This document shows, piece after piece, positions 39,071 to 55,368 of a stretch of 64,000 bases of DNA (position 1 is the stretch's first letter; each line of letters begins with the position of its first letter). Source of the DNA: Bacillales bacterium UBA3789 (GTDB lineage Bacteria; Bacillota_I; Bacilli_A; RF39; UBA660); NCBI GenBank assembly GCA_002369415.1, contig DFEZ01000011.1, positions 145,410-209,409 of the forward strand, in the 5' to 3' direction. The position numbers were made by a program, and so were the translations under genes. The notes under the pieces are model-generated. The model saw only the letters and a program-made list of their open reading frames with translations. It was not told the origin of the DNA and did not search any database.

Positions 39071-39361
39071 CTATTCTGCTACTGGATAAACAGAAGCTTG
39101 TTTCTTATCTTTTCCTAAACGTTCAAATTTAACTATTCCGTCTACTGTAGTATAAATACTATCATCATTTCCACGACGAGTATTTGTTCCAGGGAACATT
39201 TTAGTTCCTCTTTGACGATATATTATAGAACCAGCTGTTACGAATTCACCGTCAGCTGCTTTAGCTCCTAATCTACGACCTGCAGAATCACGACCATTAG
39301 ATGTTGATCCTTGCCCTTTATGGTGAGCAAATAATTGGATATCTAATTTTAAAAATTTCAT
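39071..39361 (-). CDS. rpmA: 50S ribosomal protein L27 with N-terminal cleavable propeptide
   Basis: [11 protein letters not shown]|[15 protein letters not shown]...; the conserved mature N-terminus AHKKG follows an 11-aa Firmicutes-type extension. Confidence 0.95.
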
Positions 39362-39372
39362 AATTCTCCTCC

Positions 39373-39675
39373 TTACTTAATTTCAATGTTTTCTGGATAA
39401 TTTCCAGATAATTCTTTTAAAAGACTAATCATATTATTGATTAATGCTTGAGTAATTTTATCATCACTCTTTACATCAATTGTCATACCTTTTTTACTAA
39501 CTAAATAAGTAATACTATTATTATCTATTGAAAGGATACCATTTACTGTAGTTGTAACTATACTGCTACATGCACTACAAACTATATCTTTTCCATAGTC
39601 ATCGAACATTGCATGTCCTAAAATAGTAATCTTTTTATATTTAGCACTTTCTTTAACAACTTTTACAGTAATCAT
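39373..39675 (-). CDS. prp: Ribosomal-processing cysteine protease Prp (YsxB family)
   Basis: 100 aa with catalytic His/Cys dyad context ([21 protein letters not shown]), located between rplU and rpmA. Confidence 0.85.
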
Positions 39676-39678
39676 AAA

Positions 39679-39978
39679 TTATCCAATTTTAGTAATTTTG
39701 ATTTTTGTATAAGGTTGTCTATGACCTTGTTTTACACGATTAGATCTATCTTTTTGTTTATACTTGAATACTTTGATTTTTTTAGCTTTACCATTCTTGA
39801 TAACTTCACCTTGAACAGTAACACCAGTAAGATAAGGATTACCTACTTTCTTATCAAGCATTAATACTTGATCGAAATTTACTACATCACCAGATTCGCA
39901 ATCTAATTTTTCAACATAAATTTCAGATCCTTCTGCAACATAATATTGCTTTCCACCAACTTTAATTACAGCGTTCAT
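39679..39978 (-). CDS. rplU: 50S ribosomal protein L21
   Basis: MNAVIKVGGKQYYVAEG... canonical L21; GGAGG RBS. Confidence 0.95.
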   Translation of the reverse strand: MNAVIKVGGKQYYVAEGSEIYVEKLDCESGDVVNFDQVLMLDKKVGNPYLTGVTVQGEVIKNGKAKKIKVFKYKQKDRSNRVKQGHRQPYTKIKITKIG

Positions 39979-47136: not shown

Positions 47137-50100
47137 CTATCCTGGGCATGTAGAGTATGGGCAGACTGTATTATATCCACCTATACAGTTACGATAGATA
47201 TGTACCCAGTGACAATTACCATTCCAACATTGGTATGGAGTTTCTACATATCCATATAAATCTCCATAATACCAACTTGTATCTTCTGAAATAACATATA
47301 CTCTATCGTTACGTCCACCTAATGAGTGATAGATTGTACCAACGAAAGTACTATCATCTTTATAAGAACTATTATAAATTGCAGTCATTCCGGCACGACA
47401 CGCTGTTTTCCAAACACATCCTTTTGGATTATTTTCACCACAACATGATTGTGTAGTATTATATCCACATTTTGCTACGCTTCTATTTCCTGCTTTATCT
47501 ATTACAAGCATATAATTATAATATGTTGTTCCTCCACATGCTGTATTCAAAGCAGATGAACTTGACCATCCATTTGACCAAGCTATATCATTAGGATTTG
47601 AATAGTCTACTGTAGTTGCCATATAGTATCTAGCAGAAATACCACTGTATTCTACATTATTTATCTTATCATGTGATCCTGTATCACTCATTGATGATCC
47701 ACTTATACCACAAAGTGGAGTTGGAGGTTCAGGGTCCACAGGTGTATTACATGTTTTTGCAGCACATGATTCTTCGTTACCAGCTTTATCTTTTATTGTA
47801 AATGCTGGAACAGCTGTTGTCTTTCGTGCTGTATTTAGTGCAATTTCACCTTTAGCGGAATCGTCTGCAATACCACTTTCATTATCTGTTCCACCATATG
47901 TAAGTTTTAAATTTTTATTATTAGTCCATGAAGTAATACTACAATTTGCATATGAACATTTAGGAAGCACTGCATCTATTTTAACAACTTGATTATTTGG
48001 ACACGCATCTGAAACGTTACCAGCAACATCTTTAAATGTATAAGCTACTCCTGCTCCATTTGGTCCTCCATTAGATATATTTATACTTGTAGTTGTTGTA
48101 TATTTATGTGATTTTGTCTTTGATGCACAAGTACTTCCACCATCTTTATCACTACATTTACTTGTAACTACTACATAGTCACCTTTTTTCAACCATGTAT
48201 TTGATGGTGTTGTTGGTTGACCACTTGAATTATATTCAGCTTTTGTTGTTGAACATGTTGGTTTTGTGTAATCTATTTTTACTATTCTATTTGCAGGACA
48301 TTTTGTTGTATTGTCAGCATTATCTTTTACTGTTCCACCTTCATCTTTACCAGCTGCTCCTGCAGTTGTTGTTACTATTTCAAAATTATATAGATTAGAT
48401 AATGTTTTATATTCTTCATGACATCCTGAAACTACACTTTTTTGTGCCTTATCATTACATGTTGCTGTTACAGTTGCTGTTTCACCTTTCATTAACCAAC
48501 CATCTTCTGTGTTGTTATGTGTTTTTCTATCTCCTCCAGAATAAGTAACTTTTGTTGTACAATCAGGAGCTTTATGGTCTATTTTTATATCTTTAGTTGC
48601 TGCACAATTCACTGTATTTCCAGCATTATCAGTGAACGATCCACCTTTTCCTGCTCCTGCTGCTCCACCATTACTTATGTTAATATCATCTTTATATTCA
48701 TGTGAAAATACTTTTGAACTACACTCACTTATGCTTAATATTCCTTCTTTTTTTACATCATCACATGTTGCTGTTACAACAACCGTTTCACCTTTTCCTG
48801 CCCAGTCTGATTTAGAGAATTCTCCATCTCCTTCTGCTCCTTTTTCGTGATTCATTGTTCTTTCAACAGTACATTTTGGAGCTACTGTATCTAACCAAAT
48901 CTCTGGCTTGTGTGCAATATATCCTGAACAGTTATTGGCATTATCACACAATGCAAATTCAATCTTATCTTTTCCTTGATAATCCTTTGAGAATACGAAG
49001 GCTGTTTGATCTTTATCTCCATAATATTCGTTTTTATTTGTATCACTTGCTTCATTAACTAATAGTTTACCATTTAAATCATATACATTGTATTTTCCTT
49101 TATAGAAACCTGATACATTATCGTTTTTAAAGTTATTTGCGATATATGCTTTTACATATTTATTTGTCCATGTAGCTGGACTATAATCATTTCCGTTTTG
49201 AGCTCTTATATCATTCTTTTGAAGATATGAAGTATTTACTGTTAATCTTCTAACATTTGGTGCTGTCTTATCTACATATGCATTGATGTTTACGACTGTT
49301 TTATTTCCAGCTCTATCATATACTGTTAATTTACCCCATCTAACTCCATCTGTAGGTAATCCAATATCTATTGAATATGTATTATCATCAATGAATTTGT
49401 TTGTTGGAGTTTGAAAATCACCTAAGTCACTATCATCATTTGCATCTGATACTTTTTTCTCATCTGCAGTATATGTAGTTTTAGATTTTACTCCAGAAAC
49501 ATTTGTTTCCCATGTCCATGAAGCTAATTCGATATTATCTTTTGTAGTAACATGAATGACTGGTCCGTCTGGAGAATTACTTCCATTAAACCATTTGTTT
49601 TCATCTGCACCAGCATCAATTTTATATGTATTAAAATCTATTGTTCCTGAATTGTTTCTTCTATTACCATTTGCATCTAGTCCACCAACTGTCTTAGATG
49701 CAACTACTGGTTCATTGTCTCCTGCTTTTGCTTTAACTGTTACATTTACTTCTGGTTCTAGAATATCAACGTTTACTCTAACTAAACATCTATAGTCACC
49801 AGTTTCATCTCTTCTGTGGTTTGCATCTCCCGCATCATTCCAATCATCTGGAAGACTATCTTTTACTGGTCCATCATTTCCTGCATTATCCTTAATATAA
49901 ATCCAGGCATATTTTGCACCATATAGATATGGTTGAGTTCCATTAACTGTTTGATTATTTGGCCATGTTTGAGTAAATATTTCTCTTAAACATTGACTTC
50001 CATCACCATCTGAACATTTAATTTGAATACTCTTTCCTCTTCCGGCTTTTTCATATGCAGCACGGTTATACCATTCTCCTGGTTTTGCTTGAGTAAATTT

Positions 50101-50895
50101 AAGTAAGTTAGCACTATTATCTTCACAATATGGTGGTATTGTATCTTGATAATCTGCATAACTTCCTGTACCTGTTTCAGCATGTTCATCTAAACTTCCA
50201 CCTGTTGTGTTTCTTGCTAATACTGTTAATCTTACTGATGTTATACCTGTTAAATCAATATATTTTTTAATCTTTTCACTTACGTTTATTTCTGTTCTAT
50301 TTTCTCCATTTAAGACTCCAGAATTATACACTTCTTGGTAATCTGTTTGAGCATCACGTTTTGTAGAAATAACATATGTATAAGATGTAATTTCTGTATT
50401 CTTATTTGTTGCTGATCCTAATATTGTAAATGAGAAACTTGCAACACCAACGTCATTAGAATCAGAGAAAATAATTCCGTTCTTTAATACTGGTGGATCT
50501 ATTGCCTCTTCTATTGGAGGAACTTCACTACCACAATATACATGAGGCTTATAATCATAGGAATTCTTTCCTGTTTTAATTACCTCAATAAATGAATTCT
50601 CCATACAATTTTTACCATCATCACGAATAATATCTTCTGTTAGATATTTTGTATCTTTTAATTCTTGAAATGGTATTTTTATTGACTCTCCAATTCCTTT
50701 TGGAGCCAATTCTTTATTTGCTTGTAAGTAGCTTTTTGCAGCTAAAGTTGCTGATTTTACTTCTGTTATATTTTTTTCATTTTTAGATTTATCAATTACT
50801 CTAGATACTGCAAATATAGTTACTGATGCTAGTATTCCTAAAATAACTACTACTGCTAATAATTCTACTAATGAGAAACCCTTTCTATTATTCAT
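47137..50895 (-). CDS. Giant modular type IV pilin-like protein 1 (prepilin-type N-terminal cleavage/methylation domain + pilin head + Ig-like D-x-A-G-N modules + 4 Cys-bracketed tandem repeats + Cys-rich C-terminal domain)
   Basis: MNNRKG|FSLVELLAVVVILGILASVTIFAV class III signal (G-1, F+1, E+5); pilin head with Cys pair CMENSF...YCG; 1252 aa; own promoter TTGTAT-17-TATAAT at 50918-50946. Confidence 0.8.
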   Translation of the reverse strand: MNNRKGFSLVELLAVVVILGILASVTIFAVSRVIDKSKNEKNITEVKSATLAAKSYLQANKELAPKGIGESIKIPFQELKDTKYLTEDIIRDDGKNCMENSFIEVIKTGKNSYDYKPHVYCGSEVPPIEEAIDPPVLKNGIIFSDSNDVGVASFSFTILGSATNKNTEITSYTYVISTKRDAQTDYQEVYNSGVLNGENRTEINVSEKIKKYIDLTGITSVRLTVLARNTTGGSLDEHAETGTGSYADYQDTIPPYCEDNSANLLKFTQAKPGEWYNRAAYEKAGRGKSIQIKCSDGDGSQCLREIFTQTWPNNQTVNGTQPYLYGAKYAWIYIKDNAGNDGPVKDSLPDDWNDAGDANHRRDETGDYRCLVRVNVDILEPEVNVTVKAKAGDNEPVVASKTVGGLDANGNRRNNSGTIDFNTYKIDAGADENKWFNGSNSPDGPVIHVTTKDNIELASWTWETNVSGVKSKTTYTADEKKVSDANDDSDLGDFQTPTNKFIDDNTYSIDIGLPTDGVRWGKLTVYDRAGNKTVVNINAYVDKTAPNVRRLTVNTSYLQKNDIRAQNGNDYSPATWTNKYVKAYIANNFKNDNVSGFYKGKYNVYDLNGKLLVNEASDTNKNEYYGDKDQTAFVFSKDYQGKDKIEFALCDNANNCSGYIAHKPEIWLDTVAPKCTVERTMNHEKGAEGDGEFSKSDWAGKGETVVVTATCDDVKKEGILSISECSSKVFSHEYKDDINISNGGAAGAGKGGSFTDNAGNTVNCAATKDIKIDHKAPDCTTKVTYSGGDRKTHNNTEDGWLMKGETATVTATCNDKAQKSVVSGCHEEYKTLSNLYNFEIVTTTAGAAGKDEGGTVKDNADNTTKCPANRIVKIDYTKPTCSTTKAEYNSSGQPTTPSNTWLKKGDYVVVTSKCSDKDGGSTCASKTKSHKYTTTTSINISNGGPNGAGVAYTFKDVAGNVSDACPNNQVVKIDAVLPKCSYANCSITSWTNNKNLKLTYGGTDNESGIADDSAKGEIALNTARKTTAVPAFTIKDKAGNEESCAAKTCNTPVDPEPPTPLCGISGSSMSDTGSHDKINNVEYSGISARYYMATTVDYSNPNDIAWSNGWSSSSALNTACGGTTYYNYMLVIDKAGNRSVAKCGYNTTQSCCGENNPKGCVWKTACRAGMTAIYNSSYKDDSTFVGTIYHSLGGRNDRVYVISEDTSWYYGDLYGYVETPYQCWNGNCHWVHIYRNCIGGYNTVCPYSTCPG

Positions 50896-50986: not shown

Positions 50987-53900
50987 CTATCCTGGGCAAG
51001 TGGCATATGGACAGGCACTATTATTTCCTCCTACACAGTTTGGCCATATATATGCATATGGGGCATTTCCTGCAGGATACCATGATATATTACCACAAGG
51101 TGAATAAATATATAATTTCTTAGAAGCAGAACCTTCTATTAAATATAATCTATCACTACATGATGAGTCTTTTTGATGATATACAGTACCGGCATATGTT
51201 GTTTTTGCTTCACTTGTATAGATGAATGTTCTTCCGTTACGACACGCTGTCTTCCAATTACATCCCCATGGATTAGATTCACCACAACAAGAACCTGTTG
51301 TATATGAACCAGTACATACAAATGATTCTGAGTTACCTGCTTTATCAATTACTTTAATGTGACCATAGTAAGTAGTACCACAACTTGTTCCTAATGCATT
51401 TGATGATTTCCATGCATTTGATGAAGTTGATTGCTTACTACTTGAAGTACTTGATATGTATACGACAGATGATACTCCACTATGTGAATCACTCTTAGAA
51501 TTTACATTAATTTTATTTCCTGACACTGAACATGATCCAGTTGGTTTTGTTTTATCAACTAAAACATTACAACTTGGAGTACATTTTCTTTCGTTACCAG
51601 CAATATCTTTAATTATATATTCATCAAGAGTAAATGATTTAGTTGTTTCAGTAATTGTTCTATCTTTTAGTGTAGTTGCACAACCACTTCCATTTGTATC
51701 TTGGCAACCATATTTAACTGTTCTATTTTGATTTGTCCATGATGTATTATTACAATTTTCTGTATAACAACTTGGTGCTACTGCATCTATTTTTACTGTC
51801 TTATAACCACACATTTTTGTATTTCCAGCTGTATCTGATACCGATTTAGCAACGCCATCTCCTCCAGCTCCAGCTGTTGTTGTATTAATTAGTTTATCTG
51901 TTTGATAAAGTTTGCTGAATGTTTGAGTTGCACATTCACTTCCACCTTGATCAGAACATGTTGCTGTTACTCTTGCAGTTTCTCCTTTACTTAACCAGCC
52001 AGATTCAGTATTATCATGAGTTTTCTTATCTCCACCTTCATATGTGATTGATAAGTTACATACTGGATCAGTTTGATCTATTTTAACTGTTTTATTTGCA
52101 TCACAATTAGTTACATTATCTGCGGCATCTTTTACTGATCCGCCGTTTCCAACATCTATTGCTCCAGCATTATTTATATTTGTTTCTGTGCTATATGTTT
52201 TTGAAAATGGTTGAGTAACACAACCAGAATTAATATCTTTAGTCTCACTACATTTTGCTGTTACTACCGCTTGTTCTCCTTTACTTAACCAACCAGTTGA
52301 TGATAGTTTTCCATCACCTTTGCTGCTATCTGTTACTTCATATTTAATTGAAGTTGTACAAATTGGTGCAGTGTGATCTATTTTTACTGTTTGATTTGCT
52401 GAACAAGGTGCTTCATTTCCAGCATTATCTTTTACTGTTCCACCTTCATTATTACCAGCTGCTCCTGCAGTTGTTGTACTAATTGAATCTTTATATTCAT
52501 ATGAAATCTTTTCATCAACACAACCACTACCTGATTTACCAGCATTTTGATCTGAACATGTACCTGTAACTGTAATTGTTTCTCCTATTCCAGCCCATTT
52601 TGCATCAGATAGATATCCATCTACTTCATCAATAGTCTTATTAACATTTTGACTTACTGAACATACTGGATCTATTGTATCTAACCAAATTTCTTTTACT
52701 TCACTATAAGTTGAACAGTTATTTGCTTTATCACATATTCTATATCTTACACTGTTCTTTCCTTGATAGTTTGAATCAAATGTAAATTCAGTATCTCCTT
52801 TTTTAGTAGCATTATCATTTAGAGAAATTCCATGTCCTCTAACTTCAAATTCTGCTTTGTCAAATCCAGATATTGTATCTTTATGATAGTCTTTATTAAC
52901 GTATGTTTTTACATATTTATTAGTCCATGTTTTAGATTGATAATCTTTATCTTCATCTGCTCCAATATTATTCTTTTTAAGTGTTTTAGTAATTACAGTT
53001 GCTGGTGTATCAGGTCTTGTTCTATCAATATTTGCATAGATGTTAATAACTGTTTTATTACCAGCTCTATCATATACTGTTAATTTACCATATCTTATTC
53101 CTTCACCTTTTAATTGAACAACAAATTCAGATGAAGTTAATCCATTATCATTAATACTTAAGTCTTGTTCTGGGAATGATTCTTCTTTACTATCTGGGTT
53201 TCCTACTTTTATATCTTTAATTATATTTTTATTTTTAACATAATCAGATTTTGATACTCCAGTTTCATTTGTTTCCCATGTATATTTATATAGATGAAGA
53301 TTATCATTTACTTTGATCTTGTATGTTACTCCATCTTTATGTTCTTCATTAAACCAGATCCAGTTTTCATCTCTTGGAGATTTATTTAAATTATATGAAT
53401 TTGCTGTAATAGATGCTATATCATCATACTCATTATAATTTTCATCTGCTCCTCCAGCAGAAACTGTTTTAATAATATTATCATTTGTAATTGCTGTTAC
53501 TTCTACTCTTGGAGATAAGATGTCTACATTAACTCTTACACGGCAGCTTGCTTTTGTTTCTGCATTTGTAAGAGATGAGTTATTTGCATTATCTTTTACT
53601 TCTATATATGCATATTCTGCTCCCCAATAGTAATGTTTTTCTCCTCTATAAATATCATTATTAGGGAATGATTTAGTAAATGTAGTTCTTAAGCAACCAC
53701 TACCTTCTCCATCCCCACATGTTGCTGTTATCTTTCTATATCCGCCTTTAAGGCTTTCAATTGTATGTTTATTTGTCCATTCATTTGGTTTAGCTTCATT
53801 ATCTATTTTTATACATTTAGGAGATATTGTATCTCCATAGTCTCTTTCACTATCTATACCAGTTTGTTTTGTTATTGATGTTATACCACCTTGTTCATTT

Positions 53901-54601
53901 ATAACTGTAATATTAACTCTTACTGATGTTACTGAAACTATATCAACATAATCTACTAATTTATAAGATTTAATAATTTTAGTATTGTGATTTCCTGGAA
54001 CAGATCCACTATTATAAACTTCTTGATATGAAGTATTATCCTCTAACATTGTAGATATTGTGAAACTATAACTATCTATTTCTAATGGATTGTTTTTATC
54101 TTCTGATCCTTCCATTGTCATTGTAAAACTTGCTGATGAAACATCATCGGCATTTGAAAAATCAAATTTTGTTATTACTGGTGAAATTGCTTCTATCTCT
54201 GCTGGTGCTTTTTCATCACCACAATATAGATATGCAGTATAAGAATAGTCAGTTCCTTCTGATTTATAAACTCTAACAAAGCTTTCTTTCATACAAGTTT
54301 CTCCTCTAGAGTTTTTTAAATCACTAGTAATATACTTTGTATCTTTTAATTCTTTAGCAGTAATTATTTTATGTTCACCAATTGCTTTAGGTGCTTGATC
54401 TTTATTGTCTTGTAAATATTGTTTAGCTGCTACTAGCAATGTATCTTTTGCTTCAATATTTGTTTCATTTCTTGCTTTTTCAATATACTTACTTACAGCA
54501 GTTATTCCTACAACTGATAAAATCCCTAATATTACTATTACGGCTAATAATTCAACTAATGTGAACGCTTTACTACTTTTAGTTTTTTGTTCTTTACCCA
54601 T
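50987..54601 (-). CDS. Giant modular type IV pilin-like protein 2 (paralog of protein 1, same architecture)
   Basis: MGKEQKTKSSKA|FTLVELLAVIVILGILSVVGITAV prepilin N-terminus (E+5); head Cys pair CMKESF...YCG; 1204 aa; ends ...CPYATCPG like protein 1's ...CPYSTCPG. Confidence 0.8.
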   Translation of the reverse strand: MGKEQKTKSSKAFTLVELLAVIVILGILSVVGITAVSKYIEKARNETNIEAKDTLLVAAKQYLQDNKDQAPKAIGEHKIITAKELKDTKYITSDLKNSRGETCMKESFVRVYKSEGTDYSYTAYLYCGDEKAPAEIEAISPVITKFDFSNADDVSSASFTMTMEGSEDKNNPLEIDSYSFTISTMLEDNTSYQEVYNSGSVPGNHNTKIIKSYKLVDYVDIVSVTSVRVNITVINEQGGITSITKQTGIDSERDYGDTISPKCIKIDNEAKPNEWTNKHTIESLKGGYRKITATCGDGEGSGCLRTTFTKSFPNNDIYRGEKHYYWGAEYAYIEVKDNANNSSLTNAETKASCRVRVNVDILSPRVEVTAITNDNIIKTVSAGGADENYNEYDDIASITANSYNLNKSPRDENWIWFNEEHKDGVTYKIKVNDNLHLYKYTWETNETGVSKSDYVKNKNIIKDIKVGNPDSKEESFPEQDLSINDNGLTSSEFVVQLKGEGIRYGKLTVYDRAGNKTVINIYANIDRTRPDTPATVITKTLKKNNIGADEDKDYQSKTWTNKYVKTYVNKDYHKDTISGFDKAEFEVRGHGISLNDNATKKGDTEFTFDSNYQGKNSVRYRICDKANNCSTYSEVKEIWLDTIDPVCSVSQNVNKTIDEVDGYLSDAKWAGIGETITVTGTCSDQNAGKSGSGCVDEKISYEYKDSISTTTAGAAGNNEGGTVKDNAGNEAPCSANQTVKIDHTAPICTTSIKYEVTDSSKGDGKLSSTGWLSKGEQAVVTAKCSETKDINSGCVTQPFSKTYSTETNINNAGAIDVGNGGSVKDAADNVTNCDANKTVKIDQTDPVCNLSITYEGGDKKTHDNTESGWLSKGETARVTATCSDQGGSECATQTFSKLYQTDKLINTTTAGAGGDGVAKSVSDTAGNTKMCGYKTVKIDAVAPSCYTENCNNTSWTNQNRTVKYGCQDTNGSGCATTLKDRTITETTKSFTLDEYIIKDIAGNERKCTPSCNVLVDKTKPTGSCSVSGNKINVNSKSDSHSGVSSVVYISSTSSSKQSTSSNAWKSSNALGTSCGTTYYGHIKVIDKAGNSESFVCTGSYTTGSCCGESNPWGCNWKTACRNGRTFIYTSEAKTTYAGTVYHQKDSSCSDRLYLIEGSASKKLYIYSPCGNISWYPAGNAPYAYIWPNCVGGNNSACPYATCPG

Positions 54602-54672: not shown

Positions 54673-54882
54673 CTATTCAGCTTCTTTTTTTTCTACTTCT
54701 ACTTTTCCCTTATAGTTACCGCATTTTGGGCAAACTCTATGAGGTTTGATCATTTCTCCACATGATGGACATTTTGTCATTCCTGGAACTTCCATAGCGT
54801 TATGACTTCTTCTTAATCTCTTTCTTGTCTTTGAAACTTTATGGAAAGGAACTGCAAACATTTGAATATCTAATTTCATCAT
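54673..54882 (-). CDS. rpmF: 50S ribosomal protein L32 with unusual 9-aa N-terminal extension
   Basis: [27 protein letters not shown]...CPSCGE...CPKCG zinc ribbon. Strong AAGGAG RBS 9 nt upstream of the first ATG; the internal Met8 has no RBS. Confidence 0.85.
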
Positions 54883-54888
54883 CTTATC

Positions 54889-55368
54889 TCACTCCTTATC
54901 AAATTCTTTTAATAAATCACTGAATGGATTGTTAGATTTATTTAACTCATCTTCATCTATAAGTCTCCATCCATCTCCATGAAATTTACTGAGATCATCG
55001 ACCTTAGTAAATTGTAAGGGGACCTCTAGTACAATATTTTCCCATAAAAACTGAAAAATATCAAGTATATTTTCTCTTTTTTTGCAGTTTTCATCGATAA
55101 TATCATCATATTCTATAGAAAATGGATAGCTTACTTCTTCTAAACTTATTGAATCTGGTATTTTCATTTCACCATTTATCTTACATTCAATGTAGTCTTC
55201 TAATTCACCATCTTCATCTTCTCTTCTTACTATTTTACCTTCTACTTTAATATCATTCAAAGAGATAATATCTGTATTTTCATAATATTCTTTTGGAATA
55301 CTATAGGTATTAGTAATATCTATCATCTTTTCGGTATTACTATGTAATAAACTTAAATCTATATCCAT
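54889..55368 (-). CDS. yceD: YceD/DUF177-family protein (large-subunit ribosomal accumulation protein; conserved partner of rpmF)
   Basis: Position immediately upstream of rpmF; C-terminal NPFSDLLKEF matches the DUF177 C-terminal motif. Confidence 0.55.
   Translation of the reverse strand: MDIDLSLLHSNTEKMIDITNTYSIPKEYYENTDIISLNDIKVEGKIVRREDEDGELEDYIECKINGEMKIPDSISLEEVSYPFSIEYDDIIDENCKKRENILDIFQFLWENIVLEVPLQFTKVDDLSKFHGDGWRLIDEDELNKSNNPFSDLLKEFDKE

Follow-up and report, generated by a model that had tools for sequence, protein, structure and literature searches.

In S. aureus, S. pneumoniae, and other Firmicutes, ribosomal protein bL27 carries an N-terminal leader that is removed by the cysteine protease Prp, as in MLKLNLQFF↓ASKK of S. 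aureus (the arrow marks the cut), and a 2022 review gave the motif of L27 as MLxx(D/N)LQ(F/L)F'A(S/H)KK. The 7-mer KLNLQFF suffices for Prp binding, with P1-P3 as the main specificity determinants: cleavage is lost when the P3 Gln is replaced by Ala or Glu, and it is blocked when the P1 Phe is changed to Ala. At P5, where the published determinant is Asn or Asp, the Asn forms an intrapeptide hydrogen bond in the substrate. Ile at P4 is found in a minority of the published L27 tags (Erysipelothrix, Thermotoga lettingae), and the validated S. aureus substrates diverge after the cut (ADQS, ASNN, ASKK). Prp also acts on proteins of staphylococcal phages: capsid, scaffold, and tail proteins that are not homologous to one another are cleaved at this motif, including the capsid protein gp47 and the scaffold protein gp46 of 80α, the capsid protein of phage 80, and the major tail protein of φ13. 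Among host proteins, FlhB was proposed as the second Prp substrate in the 2022 review, in which L32 appeared only as a tunnel protein, and a 2025 preprint stated that it was unclear whether Prp has further substrates; no link between L32 and Prp was found in the 8 million papers and preprints that we searched. N-terminal processing of L32 itself has long been known from mitochondria, where bL32m (MrpL32) has to lose an N-terminal region before it can join the large subunit. In that system, a 71-residue presequence is degraded processively by the ATP-dependent m-AAA protease until degradation halts at the folded zinc domain; the cut is thus set by structure.

The window, that is, the whole stretch of 64,000 nucleotides analyzed here, contains an rpmF ORF (54673..54882, minus strand) whose translation is a 69-residue L32 starting MMKLDIQMF↓AVPFHK (table 1). 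A sequence-only reading of this DNA had claimed that nine additional residues stand ahead of the normal L32 N-terminus, and the comparison with known L32 proteins bore this out. The Pfam profile Ribosomal_L32p (PF01783, E 2.6e-22) matched residues 10-64 at profile positions 1-55 of 56, residue 10 being profile position 1, and all of the solved bacterial L32 sequences (31/31) aligned only from query residue 10, which makes residues 1-9 extra; several of the deposited chains start exactly with Ala-Val-Pro. The protein was assigned to bL32 by this profile match, by its Cys4 zinc ribbon (CPSC…CPKC), and by the yceD-rpmF gene order, which is the same in related contigs. A tblastn search of the whole window found no second L32 copy, and none of the assemblies is represented more than once among the 80 related GTDB loci.

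Table 1. Positions of the rpmF and rplU-prp-rpmA features in the window
Feature	Position	Strand	Evidence and remarks
rplU (L21), first operon gene	39679..39978	-	Pfam PF00829, E 1.2e-33
Prp cysteine protease (family C108), proposed processing enzyme	39373..39675	-	Pfam PF04327, E 1.2e-21
L27 propeptide, codons 1-11 (…KLDIQLF-type)	39329..39361	-	
Mature L27 (AHHKG…)	39074..39328	-	Pfam PF01016, E 1e-31, from residue 12; stop codon 39071-39073
yceD (DUF177), directly upstream of rpmF	54889..55368	-	Pfam YceD, E 2e-05, below the curated cut-off
Shine-Dalgarno sequence AAGGAG of rpmF	54892..54897	-	9-nt spacer, then ATG 54880..54882; overlaps the last two yceD codons
L32 propeptide, codons 1-9 (MMKLDIQMF)	54856..54882	-	Without counterpart in the Pfam L32 profile or the solved chains
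Predicted Prp cut	Phe9 (54856-54858) / Ala10	-	Sequence motif
Mature L32 (AVPFHK…EAE, 60 aa)	54676..54855	-	Pfam PF01783, PDB alignments; stop codon 54673-54675

We proposed that this pre-L32 carries a copy of the genome's own L27 tag, and that Prp probably cuts it between Phe9 and Ala10 to free canonical L32. In the proposed sequence of events, rpmF would be translated from the upstream ATG into pre-L32 with its 9-residue propeptide; Prp from the rplU-prp-rpmA operon would bind P7-P1 (K-L-D-I-Q-M-F) and cut after the Phe; and the resulting N-terminus, AVPF…, would be the one that ordinary bacteria obtain by removal of the initiator Met. The canonical L32 would then enter the 50S subunit. We infer both the cleavage and its timing. 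A likely purpose would be that the L32 tail at the N-terminus stays outside the pre-50S particle for as long as Prp has not acted, as is thought for L27; equally, the tag may be nearly neutral, having to stay cleavable or be precisely deleted once it was acquired. The co-ordinated maturation of L27 and L32 that the sequence-only reading went on to suggest is conjectural. As the sequence-only reading predicted, cleavage after the Phe would leave exactly the start of the leaderless relatives and of the solved L32 chains.

The view that the leader is a Prp recognition motif was upheld by a comparison of 121 L32 proteins, in which the near-invariant positions proved to be the published determinants. 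Phe at P1 was present in 121/121, Gln at P3 in 120/121, Asp or Asn at P5 in 120/121 (D92/N28), and Ala at P1' in 120/121; Ile at P4 (120/121), which is common to the L27 tag, and Leu at P6 (119/121) were also conserved, and the variable positions were P8, P7, and P2. As expected of a Prp substrate, the tag lies at the extreme N-terminus with a length in the range of ~8-14 residues and follows the pattern L-(D/N)-(L/I)-Q-(F/L/H)-F↓A, with its P1 Phe, P3 Gln, and P1' Ala. Two features fit less well: the P2 Met (61/121) is outside the validated P2 residues (F, L, H), and Val-Pro at P2'-P3' is outside the validated L27-type substrates, although phage examples do have Pro at P3'. Since the validated S. 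aureus substrates already differ after P1', an AVPF prime side would be compatible in principle. When a relaxed motif pattern was scanned over 2.49 million six-frame residues (the window and 80 related loci, about 1.2 Mb), the 27 matches comprised 25 L32 N-termini, the N-terminus of the window L27, and one chance site inside an ORF; the match between the L32 and L27 tags is far beyond chance.

Compared with bL27 of S. aureus, the L32 leader is of the same length (nine residues in both) and shares the motif x-L-(D/N)-(L/I)-Q-hydrophobic-F↓A; in both cases the cut exposes, or would expose, the N-terminus of leaderless bacteria, and Prp is encoded in the same genome. The two proteins differ in their location, L32 adjoining uL22 in the tunnel community of the 50S subunit and L27 lying at the peptidyl transferase centre, and in their prime sides, which are AVPF in L32 and A(S/H)KK in L27. 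They also differ in that the cleavage of L32 is deduced from sequence, and in that the L32 tag occurs in a patchy set of uncultured Bacilli, whereas the long form of L27 is near-universal in Firmicutes.

The L27 gene (rpmA) lies at 39071..39361 on the minus strand, ~15.5 kb from rpmF. The resemblance that the sequence-only reading had seen between the L32 leader and the L27 propeptide of the window consists in a common KLDIQ-x-F↓A, and the Prp gene was found, as described there, between rplU and rpmA. Over its whole length, the window Prp could be aligned with S. aureus Prp (4PEO/7KLD), and it kept the GHA…D-I-V-C residues, H21, D30, and C33 corresponding to SaPrp His22, Asp31, and Cys34; an intact catalytic His/Cys pair is therefore encoded in the same genome as the tagged L32, the same-contig evidence for this being that of the window. 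The order rplU-prp-rpmA-obg with an AHHKG-type tagged L27 was present in 10/10 related contigs, which do not overlap with the L32 loci and come from a different species at ~76% DNA identity. Within 10 kb of L32, neither L27 nor Prp was found in the 80 GTDB loci, and the L32 genes with variant tags are on a 527-bp contig or on contigs without L27 (P0249, P0095). The L27 tag of the lineage is of the KLDIQLF type, with Ile at P4 in 120/120, and the L32 leaders likewise have Ile at P4. Because this residue is a minority elsewhere and invariant in the L27 of the lineage, L32 appears to copy the local dialect of the tag. In this respect, L32 differs from FlhB, a membrane export-gate protein with a loose motif in many species: the N-terminal L27-like motif of FlhB also led to its proposal as a second host substrate from sequence similarity alone, but the tag of L32 reproduces the L27 tag of its own genome almost exactly. 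That the L32 and L27 tags descend from one DNA sequence was considered on the basis of the shared AAATTAGATAT(T/C)CAA…TTTGC and was set aside as uninformative, since such a match is expected from codon bias at ~26% GC.

In a collection of 5.8 billion proteins clustered at 90% identity, 120/120 of the best L32 clusters had the leader, and so did 24 of the best 80 GTDB loci (one genome per species). When 1.84 billion representatives were searched exhaustively with a profile, 2,977 L32 matches were obtained, the best 150 of which include about a dozen leader-bearing clusters (50% identity); in a few of these the P4 residue is Leu (MKLDLQLF) or the tag is degenerate (MKLNITLFG). The length of the leader, nine residues in the window, was 8-11 residues in relatives. 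The 24 leader-bearing GTDB loci all come from MAGs of uncultured bacteria of the gut or rumen, whose labels are Bacilli, Mollicutes, Tenericutes, or Ca. Fimihabitans (Mycoplasmatota incertae sedis at NCBI). Relatives with a nearly identical L32 core start M-AVPF without a leader, and this leaderless form was also found, among the GTDB loci, in Staphylococcus, Marinococcus, Clostridia, and loci labelled Erysipelotrichaceae. In the comparison that the sequence-only reading had suggested across Erysipelotrichia, Clostridia, and Bacilli, the leader was found in uncultured gut Bacilli, but not in the Erysipelotrichaceae-labelled loci or the Clostridia; the lineage is one of uncultured gut Bacilli ('Mollicutes/Tenericutes' MAGs) and not of established Erysipelotrichia.

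Several individual loci were of separate interest. One leader variant, MKLNITLFG-ALPF (P0250), has lost the P3 Gln and is possibly a decayed or uncleavable tag, and three others have Leu at P4, namely MKLDLQLF, MLSLNLQMF, and MKFNLQMF (P0249, P0095, L031:745-942). In the P0095 lineage, SpoIIGA and a sigma factor adjoin rpmF, which places the leader also in a probable spore-former. L32 loci of the low-GC-Bacilli type were present in MAGs named Muribaculaceae (L014, L015, L024) and Paratractidigestivibacter (L019), names that stand for Bacteroidota or Actinomycetota; the contigs have probably been mis-binned.

The 5' ends of 24 leader-bearing genes (window and GTDB loci) were aligned with those of 11 close leaderless relatives. 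Judged from this alignment, the leader is best described as an 8-codon insertion immediately 3' of the initiator ATG, which refines its first description as an N-terminal extension. Its distribution among close relatives is patchy: the leaderless genes L022, L025/26, and L027/30 are nested among leader-bearing genes, and the two kinds were interleaved in a neighbor-joining tree of YceD and L32, which is a weak marker and gave a poorly resolved tree. They were also interleaved in a tree, likewise poorly resolved, of the ~400-aa gene adjacent to rpmF (14 taxa), which is a Pfam HIGH_NTase1 match in a related contig. Synteny with the larger genes of the window was confined to L001-L005.

The patchy presence among close relatives argues against an indispensable function of the leader. 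It may be, and we consider this a realistic possibility although not the favored one, that the leader is translated and removed by Prp but has no regulatory role. The 8-codon insertion would then have introduced a hitch-hiking tag, which persists because an uncleavable leader is harmful, so that the motif is either kept or precisely deleted. The nesting of the leaderless genes is consistent with such a history, as is the fact that they differ only in the clean absence of the 8 codons. However, at least 24 GTDB species and more than 100 clusters (90% identity) have kept the leader, which would be unexpected if deletion were easy and cost-free, an objection limited by the uncertain count of losses, the trees being drawn from weak markers. 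In bL32, the N-terminal part forms an extended tail that runs into rRNA, and an uncut leader may therefore be harmful; for that reason, the strict conservation of the tag could be explained even without a regulatory use. In addition, phage 80α tolerates a pre-cleaved or uncleavable capsid protein, so the tag alone implies no regulatory role, and with this tolerance and the patchiness of the trait, a near-neutral ratchet, in which the tag is either cleaved or deleted, has to be weighed seriously beside a checkpoint. A true assembly checkpoint, in which Prp would gate the entry of both bL27 and bL32 by way of the L32 propeptide, seems to us rather unlikely. During assembly, bL32 takes its place beside uL22, and the two must be bound before uL2 joins.

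We regard it as improbable that the leader is translated and retained, giving a mature L32 with nine additional residues. Cleavage is predicted here from sequence comparison, and the L32 proteins of Thermus and Deinococcus carry about 3 additional N-terminal residues, so small additions are tolerated; but retention would give no reason for the conserved P1 F, P3 Q, P5 D/N, and P1' A or for the use of the lineage's L27 variant. Moreover, deposited ribosome models build bL32 from Ala2, suggesting that the canonical N-terminus has a fixed position in the particle; in the literature searched, the location of this N-terminus is touched on only indirectly. Still less probable is the removal of the leader by a protease other than Prp, such as an Rrp-like Ntn hydrolase or a general peptidase. 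Although in S. pneumoniae TIGR4 a further protease of different specificity (Rrp) can process L27, the conserved positions of the L32 leader are specific to Prp, the window has its own prp gene, and the invariant P1 Phe would not be explained by Rrp, which still cuts the F-to-A mutant. Given this second protease, pre-L32 may have candidate enzymes besides Prp.

The alignment of 5' ends also bears on the start codon. In the window, the DNA confirmed the AAGGAG ribosome-binding site with its 9-nt spacer at the upstream ATG and the lack of a Shine-Dalgarno sequence before Met8. The TGA stop of yceD (54889-54891) abuts this site (GGAG-TGA), and the arrangement GGAGTGA-N4-5-ATG gave equal spacing to the first ATG in the 24 leader-bearing and the 11 leaderless genes. 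Among the 24 leader genes, the P2 ('Met8') codon was ATG in 13, TTA in 9, CTT in 1, and TTG in 1, and the P2 residue across the 121 L32 proteins was M61/L53/F6/I1. Because the codon was TTA, CTT, or TTG in 11/24 genes and the residue was Leu, Phe, or Ile in 60/121 proteins, an internal start cannot be the general rule. Furthermore, the peptide was retained through synonymous codon swaps (AAA/AAG, GAT/GAC, ATT/ATC, TTA/TTG/CTT, and TTT/TTC), and the synonymous and non-synonymous pair differences were 62:23 at P6, 60:23 at P4, and 44:0 at P1. These results agree with the upstream ATG as the true start, as the sequence-only reading held, and show that the leader is real, translated, and under purifying selection as a peptide. 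It is very improbable, then, that no leader is made and that translation starts at the internal Met (MFAVPF…), leaving the upstream codons untranslated, even though PGAP calls a 62-aa L32 from MFAVPF for MBR6949100.1 and MDO5392981.1 (P0421 and P0422), where an internal ATG exists; for MBR4694252.1 (P0391), where no internal ATG exists, PGAP retains the leader (68 aa). Since annotation pipelines trim the leader wherever an internal ATG is available, it is partly hidden in public databases.

In the window, the stops of the 45 ORFs of at least 200 codons were 35 TAA, 10 TAG, and 0 TGA, and yceD was the only clear gene with a TGA stop. Genetic code 4, with TGA as sense, was examined because the MAGs are labelled Mollicutes and because the yceD TGA and rpmF share a frame in the window, L001, and L004, the TGA being followed in the window by GAT AAG ATG. 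This code was rejected, since no in-frame TGA was found within real minus-strand genes of the window as against 92 TGG codons; TGA is a stop, though a rare one, in this DNA. We find it hardly credible that TGA is read through or reassigned to give a YceD-L32 polyprotein with the motif as an internal site that frees L32: the absence of TGA from the ends of the long ORFs, the in-frame codons after yceD, and a 90% L32 cluster that includes YceD sequences, hinting at predicted fusions, would favor it, but the same lack of in-frame TGA speaks against it, as do the conserved ribosome-binding site of rpmF itself and the different frames of yceD and rpmF in most relatives, with TGA-TAA tandem stops. 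The YceD sequences that share this 90%-identity cluster with L32 are 159 aa long (P0401, P0403), and a YceD-L32 read-through fusion, predicted by a pipeline with genetic code 4, presumably links the two kinds of sequence. Directly downstream of rpmF, two giant proteins of 1252 and 1204 aa are encoded (47137..50895 and 50987..54601, both on the minus strand). Pfam matches them only at the N-terminal prepilin methylation motif (PF07963), and relatives have 830-850-aa versions in the same neighborhood; they look like pseudopilins of highly unusual size.

In IMG/VR phage contigs (L086-L156), the pattern K-[LF]-D-I-Q-x-F-A was matched 71 times, the match lying at an ORF N-terminus in at least 50 cases, or about 64 when non-ATG starts were allowed, and the residues following the Ala were highly diverse. 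Ten representatives comprised major head proteins (phrog_10, 544, 212), tail proteins (phrog_372), and a tape-measure protein. The tag thus behaves as a portable signal, and these matches suggest that the processing of phage structural proteins by host Prp reaches well beyond staphylococcal phages and includes tape-measure proteins. Like the tags of the staphylococcal phage proteins, the putative tag of L32 is carried by a non-homologous protein of a large complex, the common part being only the P side and the Ala at P1'; unlike them, L32 is a housekeeping protein of the host.

Taken together, the comparisons make L32 the first candidate for a second ribosomal substrate of Prp, in which a known tag would have reached a new substrate class. 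L32 would be the cleanest natural candidate yet for a second host substrate, FlhB having been the only prior host candidate, and its tag suggests that the Prp signal can move to host housekeeping proteins, beyond those of phages. Synthetic genes allow the L32 tag to be tested without culturing the organism. The tagged L32 may also be seen as a bacterial counterpart to the mitochondrial processing of L32, with which it shares the protein family and the N-terminal region. A maturation of the MrpL32/m-AAA type is not what we found, however: the bacterial leader is nine residues long, has a strictly conserved sequence motif, and would be cut by a small cysteine protease at a site defined by sequence; the likeness is one of analogy or convergence, not homology. 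If Prp does gate the entry of both bL27 and bL32, the N-terminal processing of bacterial L32 would have evolved independently of that in mitochondria, and inhibition of Prp would hit two steps of 50S maturation at once.
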